A stretch of DNA of 17,802 nt from a virus (Duplodnaviria > Heunggongvirae > Uroviricota > Caudoviricetes). The stretch lies in IMG/VR virus record IMGVR_UViG_2645727843_000004; one strand, written 5' to 3'. A program made the position numbers and the translations under genes. The notes under the pieces were generated by a model. It ran no database searches and was not told the DNA's origin. It worked only from the letters and a program-made list of their open reading frames with translations. Positions 1,377 through 16,697 of the stretch are shown piece by piece. The stretch's first letter is position 1, and each line of letters opens with the position of its first letter.

Positions 1377-1380
1377 GTCC

Positions 1381-1407
1381 ATAAGAAAGCCCCTCCGGAG
1401 AGGGGCT
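1381..1407 (-). terminator. Candidate terminator for the minus-strand tRNA transcript: 8-bp perfect stem with a weak U-tract
   Basis: AGCCCCTC-CGGA-GAGGGGCT hairpin at 1388-1407, followed on the minus strand by UUCUUAU (1387-1381). Confidence 0.35.
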
Positions 1408-1643
1408 GGAGAGTGGCGCTATGTGCCATTGCATGGTGCCGGGTGCCTCCCGGTGAATTCAGTACCAGCACCTGAATCCGCGATTATCCCATATACCTGG
1501 TTGCTGATCGCCCCTCCGCACAGGGGGATTCACCATGCCAGTTTCTTTTAACAAACTCCCCGCAAACCAGACAACAGTCAACCGCCTGAATTGTGAGACA
1601 TTTAAAAAAAAGGCCCGCAAAAGCGAGCCAGGGAAAATAAGTG

Positions 1644-1720
1644 TGGCGCGTTGTACTGGATTCGAACCAGTGACCGATTGCTTAGAAGGCAATTGCTCTG
1701 TCCGGCTGAGCTAACAACGC
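1644..1720 (-). tRNA. tRNA-Arg, anticodon UCU
   Basis: Reverse complement folds as a cloverleaf: acceptor GCGTTGT/ACAACGC, D-arm GCTC...GAGC, anticodon loop CTTCTAA (TCT), T-loop GGTTCGAATCC, discriminator G. Folded by eye only. Confidence 0.85.
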
Positions 1721-1733
1721 AGGATACAGATAA

Positions 1734-1810
1734 TGGACCGCCTTCGGGGACCCGAACTCCGCGCAACCAGCTTCGAAAGCTGGCGCTCTTTCCTGATGAG
1801 CTAATGGCGG
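1734..1810 (-). tRNA. tRNA-like gene, probably tRNA-Arg (anticodon read as UCG); one acceptor and one T-stem mismatch
   Basis: Reverse complement has D-arm GCTC-ATCAGGAAA-GAGC, perfect anticodon stem CCAGC/GCTGG with loop TTTCGAA, and T-loop TTCGGGT. Acceptor has an A-A mismatch and the T-stem one A-C pair. Needs tRNAscan. Confidence 0.55.
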
Positions 1811-1817
1811 TATGTGA

Positions 1818-1893
1818 TGGTGGCCCTTGCTGGATTTGAACCAGCGACCTGGCGATTATGAGTCGCTCGCTCTCACCACTGAGCTAAAGGGCC
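1818..1893 (-). tRNA. ileZ: tRNA with CAU anticodon, tRNA-Ile2 (lysidine, ileX/ileZ-type) rather than elongator Met
   Basis: Reverse complement GGCCCTTTAGCTCAGTGGTGAGAGCGAGCGACTCATAATCGCCAGGTCGCTGGTTCAAATCCAGCAAGGGCCACCA; acceptor GGCCCTT/AAGGGCC, anticodon loop CTCATAA. Closely resembles my recollection of E. coli ileX. Confidence 0.8.
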
Positions 1894-1921
1894 GGGTCAA
1901 AAAATAATAATCAGATGAAAA

Positions 1922-2635
1922 TCAATAATCAAGCCCTTGCCTGGATACATATCTGTCTGGCGGGAAGCCATAATAGCGGTGAAATACAGAAATAAAGTAG
2001 GACCAGCTTGAATAACCGCATTTTTCTGCTACAGCCTGTCCATATCCATGCCGGGAACATAACATATTGACAGCAACACGCATCCGCTCTTCCAGCAACA
2101 AGCGACTGAACATGTGCCCTTCATTTTTCAGTTTTATCTTTAACAAACTCTCACTCATATGCAGGCGTAACGCAATCGCACCAAGCGTCCAGCTTGCTGA
2201 TATATCTGTCTGAATTATCGCCCTGACTTTGGCACTTATACTGGATAAACATCCACTTAAAAATAATAATATCCGTTCATCTGATTCAAACAGCGACAGG
2301 CATGCCATCATAAGAAACATATCCGTGGTATCTCCGGAAAATCTCTGGCTGGTAATTAAAGCCTCAGCCAACGCAGGGTTGTTGGGTTCCAGTGACAGAT
2401 AAAGCGGAACGTCAGTCAGATGAGTTCTTGTCAGCTTATGCTGAATTTCCAGATATTGACTTACTATGGAATGGTTTATATCGAAAATTTTAACTTTGCC
2501 ATAATGCATAAGGAAAAGCGCCCTGATGCATTTGGTGGCCAGAACGACTGAGCCGGGCTTAAGTGACAACGTATCCTTTTCAAGAAAAATATTAATTGGG
2601 GAGCAAACCATGATAACTGAACAGACAACAACCAT
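1922..2635 (-). CDS. AraC/XylS-family transcriptional regulator (prophage cargo)
   Basis: 237-aa ORF with a C-terminal AraC-type HTH (…LLEERMRVAVNMLCSRHGYGQAVAEKCGYSSWSYFISVFHRYYGFPPDRY). Sits between Q and the tRNA cluster with its own upstream terminator. Confidence 0.8.
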   Translation of the reverse strand: MVVVCSVIMVCSPINIFLEKDTLSLKPGSVVLATKCIRALFLMHYGKVKIFDINHSIVSQYLEIQHKLTRTHLTDVPLYLSLEPNNPALAEALITSQRFSGDTTDMFLMMACLSLFESDERILLFLSGCLSSISAKVRAIIQTDISASWTLGAIALRLHMSESLLKIKLKNEGHMFSRLLLEERMRVAVNMLCSRHGYGQAVAEKCGYSSWSYFISVFHRYYGFPPDRYVSRQGLDY

Positions 2636-6859: not shown

Positions 6860-8054
<1,195 letters not shown>

Positions 8055-12673: not shown

Positions 12674-13099
12674 TTAATGCACAGCCAGAGTGTTTCCTGC
12701 CGGGCCACCACGATTCATCTGATCGAACAGAACGATCGCTGATGCAACGAAATCATCAATATCTTTCACCAGCCGTTCCTTCGTCTCTACCAACTCCCGA
12801 AAATAAGCGGAACTGTGGCTGCGCATTCGGGCCACCAGCAGAGGCGGCATTGCTTTTTCGATAGCTGGTAACAGAGCCTGCATTTTTTCAACGGCATCAG
12901 GAGTATCTTTCTTTACCCAGCGGAAAATTTTCTGGGTATTGCGAGCCAGGGCTTCCGGATGGCTGTCGTCATACAGTTCTGGGAACGTCATACCCAACTC
13001 AAAATAAGCCTGGGTTATTCCAGCTGCTGGAACTTTTTCGCCATCAGGACGCGCCCAGGCATTCATCGCCATGCGGATGTGTTCATGCTTGATTTTCAT
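12674..13099 (-). CDS. YdaT-like (CII-position) early regulator
   Basis: 141 aa, MKIKHEHIRMAMNAWARPDGEKVPAAGITQAYFELGMTFPELYDD...; ATGA overlap with the Cro-like gene. Arrangement matches Rac ydaS-ydaT. Confidence 0.6.
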   Translation of the reverse strand: MKIKHEHIRMAMNAWARPDGEKVPAAGITQAYFELGMTFPELYDDSHPEALARNTQKIFRWVKKDTPDAVEKMQALLPAIEKAMPPLLVARMRSHSSAYFRELVETKERLVKDIDDFVASAIVLFDQMNRGGPAGNTLAVH

Positions 13100-13359
13100 G
13101 AATCAACTCCCAGCGCGGGTTGTGTGTTAGCCTGATAGTCAACAGGTATGCCATCGGTTGGGTTGGGGTAAGTACTGCTATCAATCTCGTGCGGGGTCAC
13201 TACCCACCCTGTTGCTTCACACCAGCGTAAAACTTTCCCCCCCGTAAGTTTCGCCCGTCCAGTAATAACATGGCTTACCATCCCTTGGGTTACCCCAACA
13301 ATTTCAGCAAAATCTTTCTGGGTTATACGGGAATGATGCAAATATTCTCCAAGATTCAT
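13096..13359 (-). CDS. Cro-like HTH protein (YdaS/DicC-type)
   Basis: 87 aa with HTH ITQKDFAEIVGVTQGMVSHVITG; SD GAGGTG; divergent from the repressor gene across an operator-bearing spacer. Confidence 0.75.
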   Translation of the reverse strand: MNLGEYLHHSRITQKDFAEIVGVTQGMVSHVITGRAKLTGGKVLRWCEATGWVVTPHEIDSSTYPNPTDGIPVDYQANTQPALGVDS

Positions 13360-13389: not shown

Positions 13390-13432
13390 TTAATAGCATT
13401 GTTATTTTTGAAAGTAAATAGCATCGCTATTT
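13390..13432. promoter_or_regulatory. Right operator region: two 15-bp palindromic operators overlapping a PR-like promoter
   Basis: AATAGCATTGTTATT (13392-13406) and AATAGCATCGCTATT (13418-13432, perfect palindrome AATAGC-N3-GCTATT). On the minus strand -35 TTTACT (13418-13413), 17-nt spacer, -10 TATTAA (13395-13390). Confidence 0.55.
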
Positions 13433-13466
13433 CAAAGAGATTAATAATCTTATTAGAATTGAAGGT

Positions 13467-13967
13467 ATGAAAAGAAAACCCCTGTCAGAGATCGACCTGC
13501 AAGCCGCCCAGAGACTGAAAGAAATCTGGACGACGAAAAAAACTCAACTTGGGTTAACCCAAGAGCGTGCGGCAGAAATTCTGGGTTTTTCGACACAAGG
13601 GGCAGTAAGCCATTATCTAAATGGTCAGACACCTTTAAATCTAGAGGCTGTTATCAAGTTCGCTGGGTTGCTACAAGTTCCGCCTGAGTCAATTAGACCA
13701 GATATGGCAGACTTGTTACGAATTGTAAGGATGTACCCCCAAGAACTGCAGCAGGATAATGTTGTCGCTTTACCCGCAGAGATGGAGCAATCGGAAAACG
13801 AACTTCCGTTTAATATAGAACCTATAGAGCGAGATTTGATCCAGACGTTCAGGGCTTTCCCAAAAGAAGACAAAGAGAAAATGCTTAAGGAAATGAAGGA
13901 GAAAAAAGAATCAATTGAAGAAACCGTTGCGCGGTGGCTAGAGGCGCAAAAAGGTCGTCGCGCCTAA
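13467..13967 (+). CDS. Prophage repressor, RacR/DicA-type (XRE HTH, no S24 peptidase domain)
   Basis: 166 aa with HTH LTQERAAEILGFSTQGAVSHYLNGQ and an acidic/lysine-rich C-terminus; divergent from the Cro-like gene; same strand as the downstream dicB-type operon. Confidence 0.8.
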   Translation: MKRKPLSEIDLQAAQRLKEIWTTKKTQLGLTQERAAEILGFSTQGAVSHYLNGQTPLNLEAVIKFAGLLQVPPESIRPDMADLLRIVRMYPQELQQDNVVALPAEMEQSENELPFNIEPIERDLIQTFRAFPKEDKEKMLKEMKEKKESIEETVARWLEAQKGRRA

Positions 13968-13984
13968 TCTGAGGAGGTTAGAAC

Positions 13985-14176
13985 ATGAGTACAGTCCTTT
14001 CCCCGATAATTTCAGAATTTGAAACAATCGAACAAGAAAACAGCTATAACGAATGGTTACGCACCAAAGTGGCAGCAAGCCTCGCAGACCCCCGTCCTGC
14101 AATTCCGCATGACGAAGTAATGGCTGAAATGGAAAACCTTATTGCGCAAATAGCTTCGACGAACAGGAGTGAGTAA
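13985..14176 (+). CDS. Putative antitoxin partnered with the downstream ParE/RelE toxin
   Basis: 63 aa, strong SD GAGGAGG; TAATG stop/start overlap with the toxin gene; 17 nt downstream of the repressor stop. Family not assigned. Confidence 0.65.
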   Translation: MSTVLSPIISEFETIEQENSYNEWLRTKVAASLADPRPAIPHDEVMAEMENLIAQIASTNRSE

Positions 14177-14466
14177 TGCTGCCCATTTTATGGCTACCTT
14201 CTGCGCGTGATGATTTGCGTCAGATCGTGGCCTATATTGCCAAGGAAAACCCTCCCGCTGCACGTAGACTAAAAATACGCATTGAAACATCAGTTTTGTC
14301 ACTTTCTGAACACCCTTACCTGTATCCACCAAGCGAAAGAGCTCTAGGCCTTCGTGAGATAGTGACCCATCCTAACTACATAATACTTTACCGAGTAACA
14401 GCATCTAACATCGAGATCGTAAATGTAGTTCACTCACGAAGGCAGTATCCAAACAAAAGCTGTTAA
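14176..14466 (+). CDS. RelE/ParE-superfamily toxin
   Basis: 96 aa: MLPILWLPSARDDLRQIVAYIAKENPPAARRLKIRIETSVLSLSEHPYLYPPSERALGLREIVTHPNYIILYRVTASNIEIVNVVHSRRQYP (ParE/RelE fold signature). Confidence 0.8.
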   Translation: MLPILWLPSARDDLRQIVAYIAKENPPAARRLKIRIETSVLSLSEHPYLYPPSERALGLREIVTHPNYIILYRVTASNIEIVNVVHSRRQYPNKSC

Positions 14467-14481
14467 TCATTCCTACCAACA

Positions 14482-14504
14482 ACCACCTTCGGGTGGTTTT
14501 TTTT
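14482..14504 (+). terminator. Intrinsic terminator ending the repressor-TA operon
   Basis: ACCACC-TTCG-GGTGGT hairpin (14482-14497) followed by T8. Confidence 0.7.
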
Positions 14505-14522
14505 CTTACCTCCAAAAAAAAC

Positions 14523-14564
14523 AATAGCATTACTATTTACACAATAAAATAGCAGTGCTATTGT
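14523..14564 (+). promoter_or_regulatory. Left operator region with PL-like promoter for the dicB-type operon
   Basis: AATAGCATTACTATT (14523-14537) and AATAGCAGTGCTATT (14548-14562); -35 TTTACA (14536-14541), 17-nt spacer, -10 TATTGT (14559-14564). Confidence 0.55.
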
Positions 14565-14740
14565 TTATTCATCACCCACCCACCCCACAGAATGCAGGGC
14601 AATACCTCGAGTTACCCGGCAGTGGCCAGGGGTTAAGTAGCCAGCCCGAGGCGTATGAACATGACGGCGGGAACACTTTGTATAACAGCGCAGCAGGTTT
14701 TTAGTTCCGCGACCCGGCGTTAAGGGTAAATGAGGTCAAC

Positions 14741-14893
14741 ATGGATATGCTCAATCTTGGCAACAACGAATCTCTGGTATGCGGAGTATTCCCCAACCTG
14801 GACGGCACGTTCACCGCGATGACGTATACCAGAAGCAAAACGTTTAAAACGGAAGCTGGCGCGCGTCGCTGGTTAGCAAGAAACTCTGACTGA
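14741..14893 (+). CDS. ydfA: YdfA-like small protein (50 aa), first gene of the dicB-type operon
   Basis: SD GAGG six nt upstream; MDMLNLGNNESLVCGVFPNLDGTFTAMTYTRSKTFKTEAGARRWLARNSD; TGATG coupling to the next gene. Below the ORF-track cutoff. Confidence 0.55.
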   Translation: MDMLNLGNNESLVCGVFPNLDGTFTAMTYTRSKTFKTEAGARRWLARNSD

Positions 14894-16092: not shown

Positions 16093-16150
16093 TTCTGGTG
16101 ACATTTGGCGGTATCAGTTTTACTCCGTGACTGCTCTGCCGCCCTTTTTT
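16093..16150 (+). ncRNA. dicF: DicF-like small RNA (ftsZ-targeting sRNA of the dicB operon)
   Basis: TTCTGGTGACATTTGGCGGTATCAGTTTTACTCCGTGACTGCTCTGCCGCCCTTTTTT closely matches my recollection of E. coli DicF, including the GGCGG...CCGCC terminator stem and T-tract; it sits just upstream of dicB, as in Qin. Confidence 0.7.
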
Positions 16151-16320
16151 AAAAGTGAATTTTGTGATGCGGTGAATGCGGCTCAGCACACGCGGAACAG
16201 TTAAAACCAAAAACAGTGTTATGGGTGGATTCTCTGTATCCGGCGTTAATTGTTAACTGGTTAACGTCACCTGGAGGCACCAGGCACCGCATCACAAAAT
16301 TCATTGTTGAGGACGCGATA

Positions 16321-16509
16321 ATGGAAAAGTTATCATGTAATGCCAGCACGTCTGAACTTCGTTTCGAAATTGGCGTTATCACTGGAGACAAAACATTTAT
16401 TGAAGACGCCATTAAGCAGAGAAAACTCGAGCAGGACCTGTTAAATGAAGTATGCATTCCTTCAATGCTGGCTCGTCTGGACCTGCTGCAAAAAGGATAT
16501 AAACAATGA
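16321..16509 (+). CDS. dicB: Cell-division inhibitor DicB
   Basis: 62 aa MEKLSCNASTSELRFEIGVITGDKTFIEDAIKQRKLEQDLLNEVCIPSMLARLDLLQKGYKQ; aligns by eye with K-12 DicB (FEIGV, EDAI, SMLARL). SD GAGG upstream. Confidence 0.85.
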   Translation: MEKLSCNASTSELRFEIGVITGDKTFIEDAIKQRKLEQDLLNEVCIPSMLARLDLLQKGYKQ

Positions 16510-16697
16510 ATACAACATTTGCACTCGTTCTGACAGTTTATCTTGTTTCCGGCGAATCTCTTGAGCTGGTGACTGGCTTATACGGTTCAATGAAAGAATG
16601 CATGGCTGCAGCAGCAGAACAAAAAATTCCCGGTAACTGTTATCCGGTAGATAAAACTACTCACACTAATAATAACGAAATACCGGCAGGACTTTAA
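16506..16697 (+). CDS. ydfD: YdfD-like small protein with a hydrophobic N-terminus
   Basis: 63 aa MNTTFALVLTVYLVSGESLELV...EQKIPGNCYPVDK...EIPAGL; ATGA overlap with dicB. Confidence 0.75.
   Translation: MNTTFALVLTVYLVSGESLELVTGLYGSMKECMAAAAEQKIPGNCYPVDKTTHTNNNEIPAGL

Follow-up and report, generated by a model that had tools for sequence, protein, structure and literature searches.

The four copies of a 15-bp palindrome, AATAGC-N3-GCTATT, carried by the 17,802-bp stretch of DNA analysed here (the window) are, to judge from the sequence, very probably the strong operators with which a lambdoid prophage of E. coli runs a bistable immunity switch of the lambda type. By its predicted gene content the locus is an immunity region of the CP-933P/Rac/Qin type. 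The switch mechanism, being of the lambda type, is already known and no new mechanism is revealed; what is new is the operator sequence variant, for which a precise map is provided in an uncharacterised immunity type of E. coli. The OR/OL-type architecture proposed in a preliminary description of this DNA fits the genes present, the geometry of the promoters and the comparison of genomes alike.

A motif search of the whole window with AATAGCNNNGCTATT, allowing at most one mismatch, returns four matches; in 200 dinucleotide-preserving shuffles searched for AATAGC-N3-GCTATT at the same threshold, the mean is 0.06 and the maximum 1, and none of the 200 gives four. The count of four given previously stands. 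The sites form two pairs, i.e. OR1 (AATAGCATTGTTATT, 13392-13406, centre 13399) with OR2 (AATAGCATCGCTATT, 13417-13431, centre 13424), and OL2 (AATAGCATTACTATT, 14523-14537, centre 14530) with OL1 (AATAGCAGTGCTATT, 14548-14562, centre 14555). OR2, which lies within a 17-bp palindrome (13416-13432), and OL1 are perfect, whereas OR1 and OL2 each carry one mismatch, so that the earlier statement that all copies are palindromic holds in full for two of them. The positions of OR1, OL2 and OL1 recur unchanged in the motif search; the remaining site had been placed at 13418-13432, off by one. Centres are 25 bp apart in both pairs (25-26 bp had been given, and there is no instance of 26), and the midpoints of the pairs are 1131 bp apart, in accord with the earlier figure of about 1.1 kb. 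Further copies, or a similar density elsewhere, had been raised as a point to check: at one mismatch or fewer there are none elsewhere in the window, and none in the 9 kb to either side of the locus in a genome that is 99.7% identical (L001). An unrelated 50-kb stretch of that genome's chromosome (sample L022) has none either, the density outside the window having been sampled over 50 kb of chromosome and 37 kb of prophage.

The first pair does lie, as previously described, between divergent cro-like (13096-13359, minus strand) and repressor (13467-13967, plus strand) genes with HTH_3 domains, in a 107-bp intergenic region where two strong sites and one weak candidate site overlap the PR and PRM hexamers. 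PR (13390-13418, minus strand) was read from the sequence as a -35 TTTACT (from 13418 to 13413), a 17-bp spacer and a -10 TATTAA (from 13395 to 13390). These hexamers, which had been taken to make a good promoter, are present, but they match the consensus at only 8 of 12 positions and the -10 lacks the conserved final T, which is why the promoter scan made no call. The same layout occurs with better hexamers in relatives, e.g. TTGACA/TAATAT in L013. PR is predicted to drive the ydaS-like gene, ydaT and the replication genes. At the second pair, the plus-strand promoter noted before was called by the consensus scan: PL (14536-14564), the analogue of dicBp, has a -35 TTTACA (14536-14541), a 17-bp spacer and a TG-extended -10 TATTGT (14559-14564). 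It is predicted to drive ydfA, DicF, dicB and a DUF1482 gene, which lie downstream, in keeping with its earlier assignment to a dicB-type operon.

PR and PL have the same geometry: relative to the predicted start, one site is centred near -16 and the other near -41. OR1 overlaps the PR -10 by 4 bp (centre about -16) and OR2 overlaps the PR -35 by 2 bp (centre about -41); likewise OL1 overlaps the PL -10 by 4 bp (about -16) and OL2 the PL -35 by 2 bp (about -41), the final TT of OL2 in relatives being the first bases of a TTGAC -35. OR2 also abuts the -35 of PRM, a plus-strand promoter found by the scan (13431-13459; -35 TTCAAA, 17-bp spacer, -10 TAGAAT), and is centred at about -43 from its predicted start. 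The repressor ATG (13467) is 7 nt past the PRM -10 and a usable Shine-Dalgarno sequence is absent; the repressor mRNA is probably leaderless and would be translated as such. A gap of 6-7 nt between -10 and ATG is found also in relatives and in CP-933P, where 5' RACE and N-terminal sequencing have shown the regulator transcript to be leaderless (PMC8630535).

A third operator at OR is tentatively proposed at 13440-13454 (ATTAATAATCTTATT; 5 mismatches to the core). This weak OR3 candidate is 23 bp from OR2, within the PRM spacer and touching the PRM -10, and its PWM score of 7.5 bits ranks seventh in the window, the four strong sites scoring 22.7-24.0. Each of the ten related loci has a PWM-positive site at +23/24, e.g. 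ATTAGCAAACCTATT in L019 and ATTAGTAAAACTATT in L007/L009/L011, a conservation that is confounded with that of the PRM promoter itself. At OL, sequence inspection and the PWM reveal nothing plausible as an OL3 at a distance of 23-26 bp from the pair on either side.

Around the sites, ydaT and the cro-like ydaS are read leftward; next come the repressor, paaA and parE, closed by a terminator, and beyond it PL with ydfA, DicF and dicB. The Cro analogue is a YdaS-like protein of 87 residues (Pfam HTH_3; recognition helix TQGMVSHVITG), 28% identical to CP-933P YdaS. YdaT, the CII analogue (12674-13099, minus strand; Pfam YdaT_toxin; PDB 8bt1/3c4r, E about 1e-82), is 86.5% identical to its CP-933P counterpart. 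At the ydaS/ydaT junction, in the PRE region, lies a putative YdaT operator, OM (TTGATTTTCATGAATCAA, 13089-13106), an exact match to TTGATT-N6-AATCAA, which has been footprinted in CP-933P (PMC9986795). Downstream of the repressor, paaA (13985-14176, plus strand; Pfam PaaA2, PF21217, 2.9e-22; PDB 3zbe PaaA2) and parE (14176-14466, plus strand; Pfam ParE_toxin, PF05016, 3.8e-18) encode proteins 71% identical to PaaA2 and 65% identical to ParE2, respectively. This toxin-antitoxin pair is predicted to be co-transcribed with the repressor, the operon closing with an intrinsic terminator (14481-14508, plus strand; 7-bp stem with 4 GC pairs, T run). The PL operon, all on the plus strand, comprises ydfA (DUF1391, 14741-14893), DicF RNA (16093-16144), dicB (within 16216-16509) and the DUF1482 gene (16506-16697). 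The conserved 150-nt leader after PL was considered as a structured RNA and rejected, having no Rfam match, a fold z-score of +0.96 and a weak consensus structure. The preliminary description had left out the PaaA/ParE pair, the lack of a RecA-cleavable domain, the likely weak OR3 and the probably leaderless mRNA.

The 166-residue repressor (13467-13967, plus strand; Pfam HTH_3/HTH_31) is, on sequence comparison, a natural chimera that joins a lambda-CI-like N-terminal DNA-binding domain to a PaaR2 C-terminal tail. In an AF2 model a five-helix HTH domain is followed by a disordered linker and then, at the C terminus, by a helical hairpin of the PaaR2 type. The N-terminal domain, with an arm MKRKPLS and a recognition helix TQGAVSHYLN, is homologous to lambda CI residues 1-92 (phmmer against PDB 1lmb, E=1.6e-9), and Foldseek superimposes the model on the lambda cI N-terminal domain with TM 0.83-0.94, rmsd 1.1-1.6 A and 35% identity. 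Repressor residues E33 and E37 align with lambda E34 and D38, which are the positive-control residues of lambda CI. The last 44 residues are 50% identical to PaaR2 (E=1.4e-14), the rest of which does not align. A Peptidase_S24 autocleavage domain is absent from the repressor, for which Pfam returns only HTH_3/HTH_31 and the model only a linker and two-helix tail; lacking a LexA-like C-terminal domain, it is not expected to undergo RecA-mediated cleavage. PaaR2 reportedly forms octamers in solution (PMC8630535), and the oligomeric state of the repressor is extrapolated from the 44-residue similarity. Related proteins of 244 residues combine the two kinds of DNA-binding domain in a tandem arrangement.

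Comparison across loci ties the palindrome to the recognition helix. In a set of ten non-redundant loci (69.6 kb), whose repressors share this recognition helix and are 41-98% identical overall, 40 of the 44 sites that have 2 mismatches or fewer belong to an OR or OL pair. At this threshold an OR pair (24-26 bp apart) is present in 10/10 loci and an OL pair (24-27 bp apart) in 9/10; the position of OR1 is kept in L002, L003, L007, L009, L011, L013, L017, L019 and L020. Some of the ten have another repressor C-terminal part and other downstream cargo. Over these 40, near-invariance is seen at the outer AATA/TATT positions (1.7-1.8 bits) and free variation at the centre (0.3-0.6 bits), as expected of an operator contacted by a dimer. 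The recognition helices of the repressor and of the Cro-like protein are both conserved in these same-operator loci. By contrast, no AATAGC-N3-GCTATT sites occur in L004, L005, L006, CP-933P (L016) and K-12 Rac (L021), loci that share the gene order but encode other DNA-binding domains; they have repeats of their own at the corresponding places. In each of five immunity types the helices of repressor and Cro analogue are near-identical, and they differ from one type to another. The CP-933P region was located via the 5' end of paaR2, rebuilt from published primers; L004 (O157:H7), found by paaA-parE similarity, was considered as CP-933P and rejected, its repressor and repeats being different.

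Of 5,426 complete E. coli genomes at least 72 carry this immunity type, O145:H28 and O104:H4 strains among them, with 91-99.7% conservation. The immunity core is absent by megablast from 50,697 phage records, where only its flanks (ydaT, PL leader) match; a protein search gives only relatives of the N-terminal domain at 54% identity or less, e.g. CI of Stx2a phages. Within the literature that could be searched, queries for the motif produced irrelevant matches only; a review of Stx-phage induction holds no such sequence.

Taken as a lambda-type switch, the locus would work as follows. Repressor dimers would bind each 15-bp site via the lambda-CI-like HTH, using the helix TQGAVSHYLN and the N-terminal arm, and dimer pairs 25 bp apart on OR1+OR2 and OL1+OL2 would cover the -10 and -35 elements and so shut PR and PL; we infer cooperativity and an order of occupancy at these sites. 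Adjacent lambda CI dimers tolerate spacings of 23-24 bp; at 25 bp, neighbouring dimers would face different sides of the DNA. From OR2, at about -43 from the weak PRM, the repressor probably activates its own leaderless transcript, which would carry paaA-parE. The PaaR2-type tail probably drives higher-order assembly and, since PaaR2 is octameric in solution, four dimers on the 2+2 sites could hold OR and OL together, closing a loop of about 1.1 kb. Competition for these sites is expected from the Cro-like protein, which may favour the OR3 candidate and would thereby shut off PRM, and YdaT would act at 13089-13106 to fire a PRE-like promoter.

It might be argued that the sites serve mainly or solely the Cro-like YdaS homologue as its operators, the 166-residue protein recognising something else. 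TQGMVSH is kept in all loci with the motif, so the co-occurrence argument fits the Cro-like protein equally; the repressor TQGAVSH is, however, just as conserved and nearly identical to it, the intergenic region has no alternative repeat, and in lambda, as in CP-933P, the operators that the two proteins protect overlap. We consider exclusive use by the Cro-like protein quite improbable, and binding by that protein is more an addition to the switch model than an alternative to it. That the sites are autoregulatory operators of a PaaA-ParE complex, of the kind known from classical type II systems, is suggested by the flanking of the paaA-parE operon by both pairs. It is the least probable of the readings weighed here, given that PaaA2 has no DNA-binding domain, that regulation in CP-933P is by PaaR2 (PMC8630535), and that relatives with the same sites carry HipA-like, HigB/HigA or no cargo in place of paaA-parE.

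Two further readings deny the sites a present function. PR and PL may share ancestry, their modules aligning over about 45 bp and the ends of the sites forming part of the -35 and -10 elements, so that the palindromes could be by-products of a duplicated promoter module with no role as operators. Yet from locus to locus the hexamers, spacers and central triplets vary, whereas the half-sites stay palindromic at all four positions, and other immunity types retain the promoters and exchange the repeats; there is very little chance that this account is correct. Slightly more credible, though still highly improbable, is that an architecture intact in sequence is the non-functional remnant of a decayed prophage. 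The prophage, with an IS element (transposase, 7006-7986) in its nin region, may indeed be defective and the switch partly vestigial, and the related CP-933P is cryptic. Against loss of function, the repressor, cro-like gene, ydaT, toxin-antitoxin pair and all sites are intact, with 91-99.7% conservation across 72 complete E. coli genomes; moreover, CP-933P, cryptic as it is, has a switch that is bistable and active.

The operator reading has consequences beyond the sites themselves. The switch is predicted to control both a ParE toxin-antitoxin pair and the cell-division inhibitors DicF/DicB. The locus offers a natural example of modular repressor evolution, in which tail and promoter scaffold are kept and DNA-binding domain, Cro helix and operators are exchanged together, with possible use in understanding hetero-immunity among co-resident prophages of pathogenic E. 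coli and in the design of orthogonal switches. A broader proposal, which is conceivable but which we rate as somewhat doubtful, is that prophages of this group change their immunity specificity through the concerted exchange of cassettes: a domain of the lambda-CI type would be grafted onto a PaaR oligomerisation tail, and the Cro helix and all OR/OL operators swapped, with YdaT, its operator, the toxin-antitoxin pair, the PL leader and the promoter geometry kept. The repressor would then use exactly 2+2 strong sites in an octamer-bridged loop of about 1.1 kb enclosing its own gene and the ParE toxin-antitoxin pair, and the 244-residue tandem proteins might be swap intermediates or dual-specificity repressors.

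With respect to known systems, the DicA/DicC region of Qin is a bistable, antirepressor-inducible switch in which dicBp is laid out as is PL in the window (PMC10448788). In both, a repressor that is short and lacks a cleavage domain governs, by prediction in the window, a divergent cro-like gene and a promoter for ydfA-dicF-dicB farther downstream; the repressor sequence and operators of Qin are different, and it has no paaA-parE. K-12 Rac has operators of the form (T/A)TAGGC-N3-GCCTA(T/A) in its racR-ydaS intergenic region (PMC9638921). The architecture of RacR/YdaS/YdaT and the 6-3-6 palindrome format are shared with the window, with a different half-site sequence, and downstream of racR a pair of sites lies over a TTGACA/TATAGT promoter, followed by the same conserved leader and DUF1391 gene; unlike the window, Rac has no toxin-antitoxin pair. 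RacR itself was rejected as a homologue of the repressor (blastp E=3.7).

Lambda shares with the window a homologous N-terminal domain with an arm and acidic positive-control residues, palindromic operators 23-25 bp apart with OR1 on the PR -10 and OR2 on the PR -35 beside the PRM -35, a weak, leaderless PRM transcript (predicted in the window), and a second operator set at PL beyond the repressor operon. The differences are that lambda CI has a LexA-like C-terminal domain where the window repressor has a short helical hairpin; that lambda sites are 17 bp and three per operator, compared with 15 bp and two strong sites per operator; that OR and OL are about 2.4 kb apart rather than 1.1 kb; that the cargo is rexAB rather than paaA-parE; and that Cro and CII are replaced in the window by the unrelated YdaS and YdaT.

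Gene order is the same in CP-933P of E. coli O157:H7 (paaR2-paaA2-parE2/ydaS-ydaT; Jurenas et al. 2021, PMC8630535), a region whose action as a CI/Cro/CII switch with PR, PRM, PL and PRE promoters has been demonstrated with EMSA, reporter fusions, 5' RACE and DNase I footprinting (PMC8630535). Both have operators at PR/PRM and at PL, regulators without an S24 domain, and the TTGATT-N6-AATCAA YdaT operator at the ydaS/ydaT junction. By contrast, the DNA-binding domain of PaaR2 is unrelated in sequence to the lambda-CI-like domain of the window, and CP-933P has 18-bp repeats with the consensus GTTTAGTAA, arranged as four inverted repeats plus three pseudo-symmetric operators, where the window has clean AATAGC-N3-GCTATT palindromes, two strong per promoter and one weak. 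Since their operators differ, CP-933P and the prophage in the window should be hetero-immune.

A search of the 17.8-kb window for the motif AATAGC-N3-GCTATT, allowing up to one mismatch, finds exactly four sites, which are very probably operators: 13392-13406 (OR1, AATAGCATTGTTATT, one mismatch), 13417-13431 (OR2, AATAGCATCGCTATT, perfect), 14523-14537 (OL2, AATAGCATTACTATT, one mismatch) and 14548-14562 (OL1, AATAGCAGTGCTATT, perfect); dinucleotide-preserving shuffles of the window gave a mean of 0.06 sites and a maximum of one. The four palindromes in two pairs about 1.1 kb apart of the preliminary description are thus present, with pair midpoints separated by 1131 bp, though two of the copies are imperfect, the second site had been placed one base off (at 13418-13432), and the spacing, reported as 25-26 bp, is 25 bp in both pairs. 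The search for further copies, also proposed there, found none with one mismatch or fewer elsewhere in the window, in the 9 kb flanking this locus on each side in genome L001 (99.7% identical), or in 50 kb of unrelated chromosome from that genome.

The window is part of an E. coli lambdoid prophage, with loci 99-99.7% identical to it in 15 complete genomes, including O145:H28, and 91-95% identical in about 55 more, including O104:H4. On the minus strand, genes for a DnaC-like loader and a DnaD-like initiator lie to the left of ydaT (12674-13099) and an HTH cro-like gene (13096-13359); a divergent intergenic region of 107 bp separates the latter from the HTH repressor gene (13467-13967, plus strand), which is followed by paaA (13985-14176), parE (14176-14466) and, before the OL pair, an intrinsic terminator (14481-14498). 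Beyond PL are an untranslated leader of about 150-170 nt (14573-14740), ydfA/DUF1391 (14741-14893), the DicF RNA (16093-16144, 77 bits), dicB (within 16216-16509, Pfam 3.6e-38) and a DUF1482 gene, so that the dicB-type operon previously placed here is borne out; the DicB match spans residues 36-97 of the listed ORF, hence the true start is probably internal. The leader is 85-90% conserved in CP-933P, two other O157-type loci, K-12 Rac and several E. coli phages, i.e. it is kept among hetero-immune prophages while the operators directly upstream differ completely; it has no Rfam match, its predicted fold is not significant (z=+0.96) and its consensus structure is weak. Elsewhere, an IS-type DDE transposase gene (DDE_Tnp_1 + DUF772; 7006-7986, minus strand) has inserted between genes of the nin region, which may mean that the prophage is defective, and the late-region end (1377-2635, minus strand) holds an STnc100 sRNA match (1377-1567), three tRNA genes (1647-1893) and a gene for a 237-aa AraC-type HTH protein (1922-2635).

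The minus-strand promoter PR, earlier called good, does have the hexamers TTTACT (-35, 13418 to 13413) and TATTAA (-10, 13395 to 13390) with a 17-bp spacer, but their match is weak (8/12) and was not called by the promoter scan; those of relatives are better, in the same register. The scan did call the plus-strand promoter PL (14536-14564; TTTACA, 17-bp spacer, TG-extended TATTGT), which both OL sites overlap, as had been described. At PR and PL alike, one site covers 4 bp of the -10 (centre about -16 from the predicted start) and the other 2 bp of the -35 (centre about -41). PRM was also called (13431-13459; TTCAAA, 17-bp spacer, TAGAAT), its predicted start being about 43 bp downstream of the OR2 centre. 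Only 7 nt, with no usable ribosome-binding site, separate the PRM -10 from the repressor ATG; the same spacing is seen in relatives and in CP-933P, for the regulator of which a leaderless transcript has been demonstrated (PMC8630535). With a PWM built on 40 sites, all ten loci yield a further, weak match 23-24 bp from OR2, on the side away from OR1. In the window this match is 13440-13454, which scores 7.5 bits where the strong sites score 22.7-24.0; as it overlaps the spacer and -10 of PRM, it is a tentative OR3 candidate. No OL3 was found beside the OL pair in the window.

The N-terminal half of the repressor is a lambda-CI-type domain (match to 1lmb, E=1.6e-9, N-terminal arm included), the five helices of which, in an AlphaFold model, superpose on the lambda cI N-terminal domain with TM 0.83-0.94; after them come a disordered linker (residues 90-112) and, at the C terminus, a hairpin of two helices. 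E33 and E37 align with lambda E34 and D38, which are positive-control residues, making PRM activation by OR2-bound repressor plausible. A Pfam domain search found no S24 peptidase domain.

Repressors with the recognition helix TQGAVSHYLN (41-98% overall identity, some differing in the tail or having a second HTH domain in addition) were found by database search and their loci fetched. The ten non-redundant loci total 69.6 kb and hold 44 sites with up to two mismatches, 40 of which sit in two places, the divergent intergenic region and a promoter downstream of the repressor operon. The OR pair is spaced by 24-26 bp in all ten and the OL pair by 24-27 bp in nine, while in the tenth one member of the pair is weaker. 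OR and OL lie between about 0.6 and 3 kb apart and the intervening cargo varies (PaaA/ParE, HipA-like, HigB/HigA or nothing), implying that the sites travel with the repressor, not the cargo. Within these 40 sites there is hardly any variation at the outer AATA/TATT positions, while the three central bases vary freely. AATAGC-type sites are absent from loci that share the gene order but encode other DNA-binding domains (L004, L005, L006, CP-933P and K-12 Rac), each of which has its own repeats at equivalent positions.

Across five immunity types, the recognition helices of repressor and Cro analogue are almost identical within a type and different between types, as a shared-operator CI/Cro switch predicts: TQGAVSH/TQGMVSH in the window, QQTVQQW/QQTVWQW in L004, SYLSQLMSGR/SYLSQMASGR in CP-933P and PPSIYDWIKKG/PPSVNQWIKG in K-12 Rac, with the L005 pair also similar, if less closely. 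Metagenomic relatives of ~244 aa (P0013-P0023; loci L007, L009, L019) have two tandem HTH domains before the PaaR tail, one lambda-CI-like with the same recognition helix and one of the O157 L004/L005 type, and their loci keep 2+2 AATAGC-type sites. Related sites, e.g. AATAGTCTAGCTATT and ATTAGCCTCACTAAT / AATAGTCAGACTATC, also occur between cro and cI in the loci of two more distant repressors whose N-terminal domain is related, namely a LexA-type CI of the Stx2a-type phage Lyz12581Vzw (L014; 54% identity, helix TQGAVSQLLN) and a 'DicA' of 153 aa from phage Rac-SA53 (L015; SQGTVSQYLN); this suggests a wider operator family.

In the proposed mechanism, predicted repressor dimers at OR1+OR2 and OL1+OL2 would occlude PR and PL, and an OR-OL loop of four dimers may form through the PaaR-type tail, a homologue of the tail in octameric PaaR2 (PMC8630535). 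Repressor at OR2 would activate the predicted leaderless repressor-paaA-parE transcript, the Cro-like protein would compete for the four sites, and YdaT at its own operator would fire a PRE-like promoter. Induction cannot be by RecA cleavage of the repressor and, by analogy with Qin DicA (PMC10448788), may need an antirepressor or spontaneous switching.

The gene organisation is that of the CP-933P immunity region, where PaaR2, YdaS and YdaT, functional analogues of CI, Cro and CII, act at PR, PRM, PL and PRE (PMC8630535). Gene content, promoter geometry and the comparison of loci together support the OR/OL-type architecture of the preliminary description. Comparison with the CP-933P locus, located via a paaR2 5' end rebuilt from published primers, gives identities of 86.5% for YdaT, 71% for PaaA, 65% for ParE and 28% for YdaS. 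By contrast, the regulators are alike (50%) only over the last 44 residues, the N-terminal half in the window being, unlike that in CP-933P, lambda-CI-type. At the ydaS stop/ydaT start (13089-13106) is a sequence identical to the YdaT operator OM known from footprinting (TTGATT-N6-AATCAA; PMC9986795), and the sequence around it agrees with the PRE933P primer from the literature; conservation of a PRE-like promoter activated by YdaT is therefore probable. The CP-933P operators, however, are 18-bp repeats (consensus GTTTAGTAA; PMC8630535), and a motif search of that locus found no AATAGC-type site. With CP-933P-like genes but another DNA-binding domain and other operators, the window is, as judged from sequence, a hetero-immune variant of a known system.

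Rac operators, (T/A)TAGGC-N3-GCCTA(T/A) (PMC9638921), share the 6-3-6 format of the window sites. A TTGACA/TATAGT promoter lies downstream of racR in K-12 Rac, and two RacR-type palindromes, ATTAGGCATAGCCTAT and ATTAGGCATTACCTAT, overlap it with the register that OL2 and OL1 have in the window; the conserved leader and a DUF1391 gene come next, as in the window, and the OL/PL module thus seems present in Rac too. Systems of this kind are already familiar from lambda, Rac, Qin and CP-933P. No publication on the AATAGC-N3-GCTATT motif was found in the searchable literature; what appear to be new are this operator sequence, its assignment to a chimeric repressor with a lambda-CI N-terminal domain and PaaR tail, and the evidence for a joint exchange of DNA-binding domain, Cro helix and operators.
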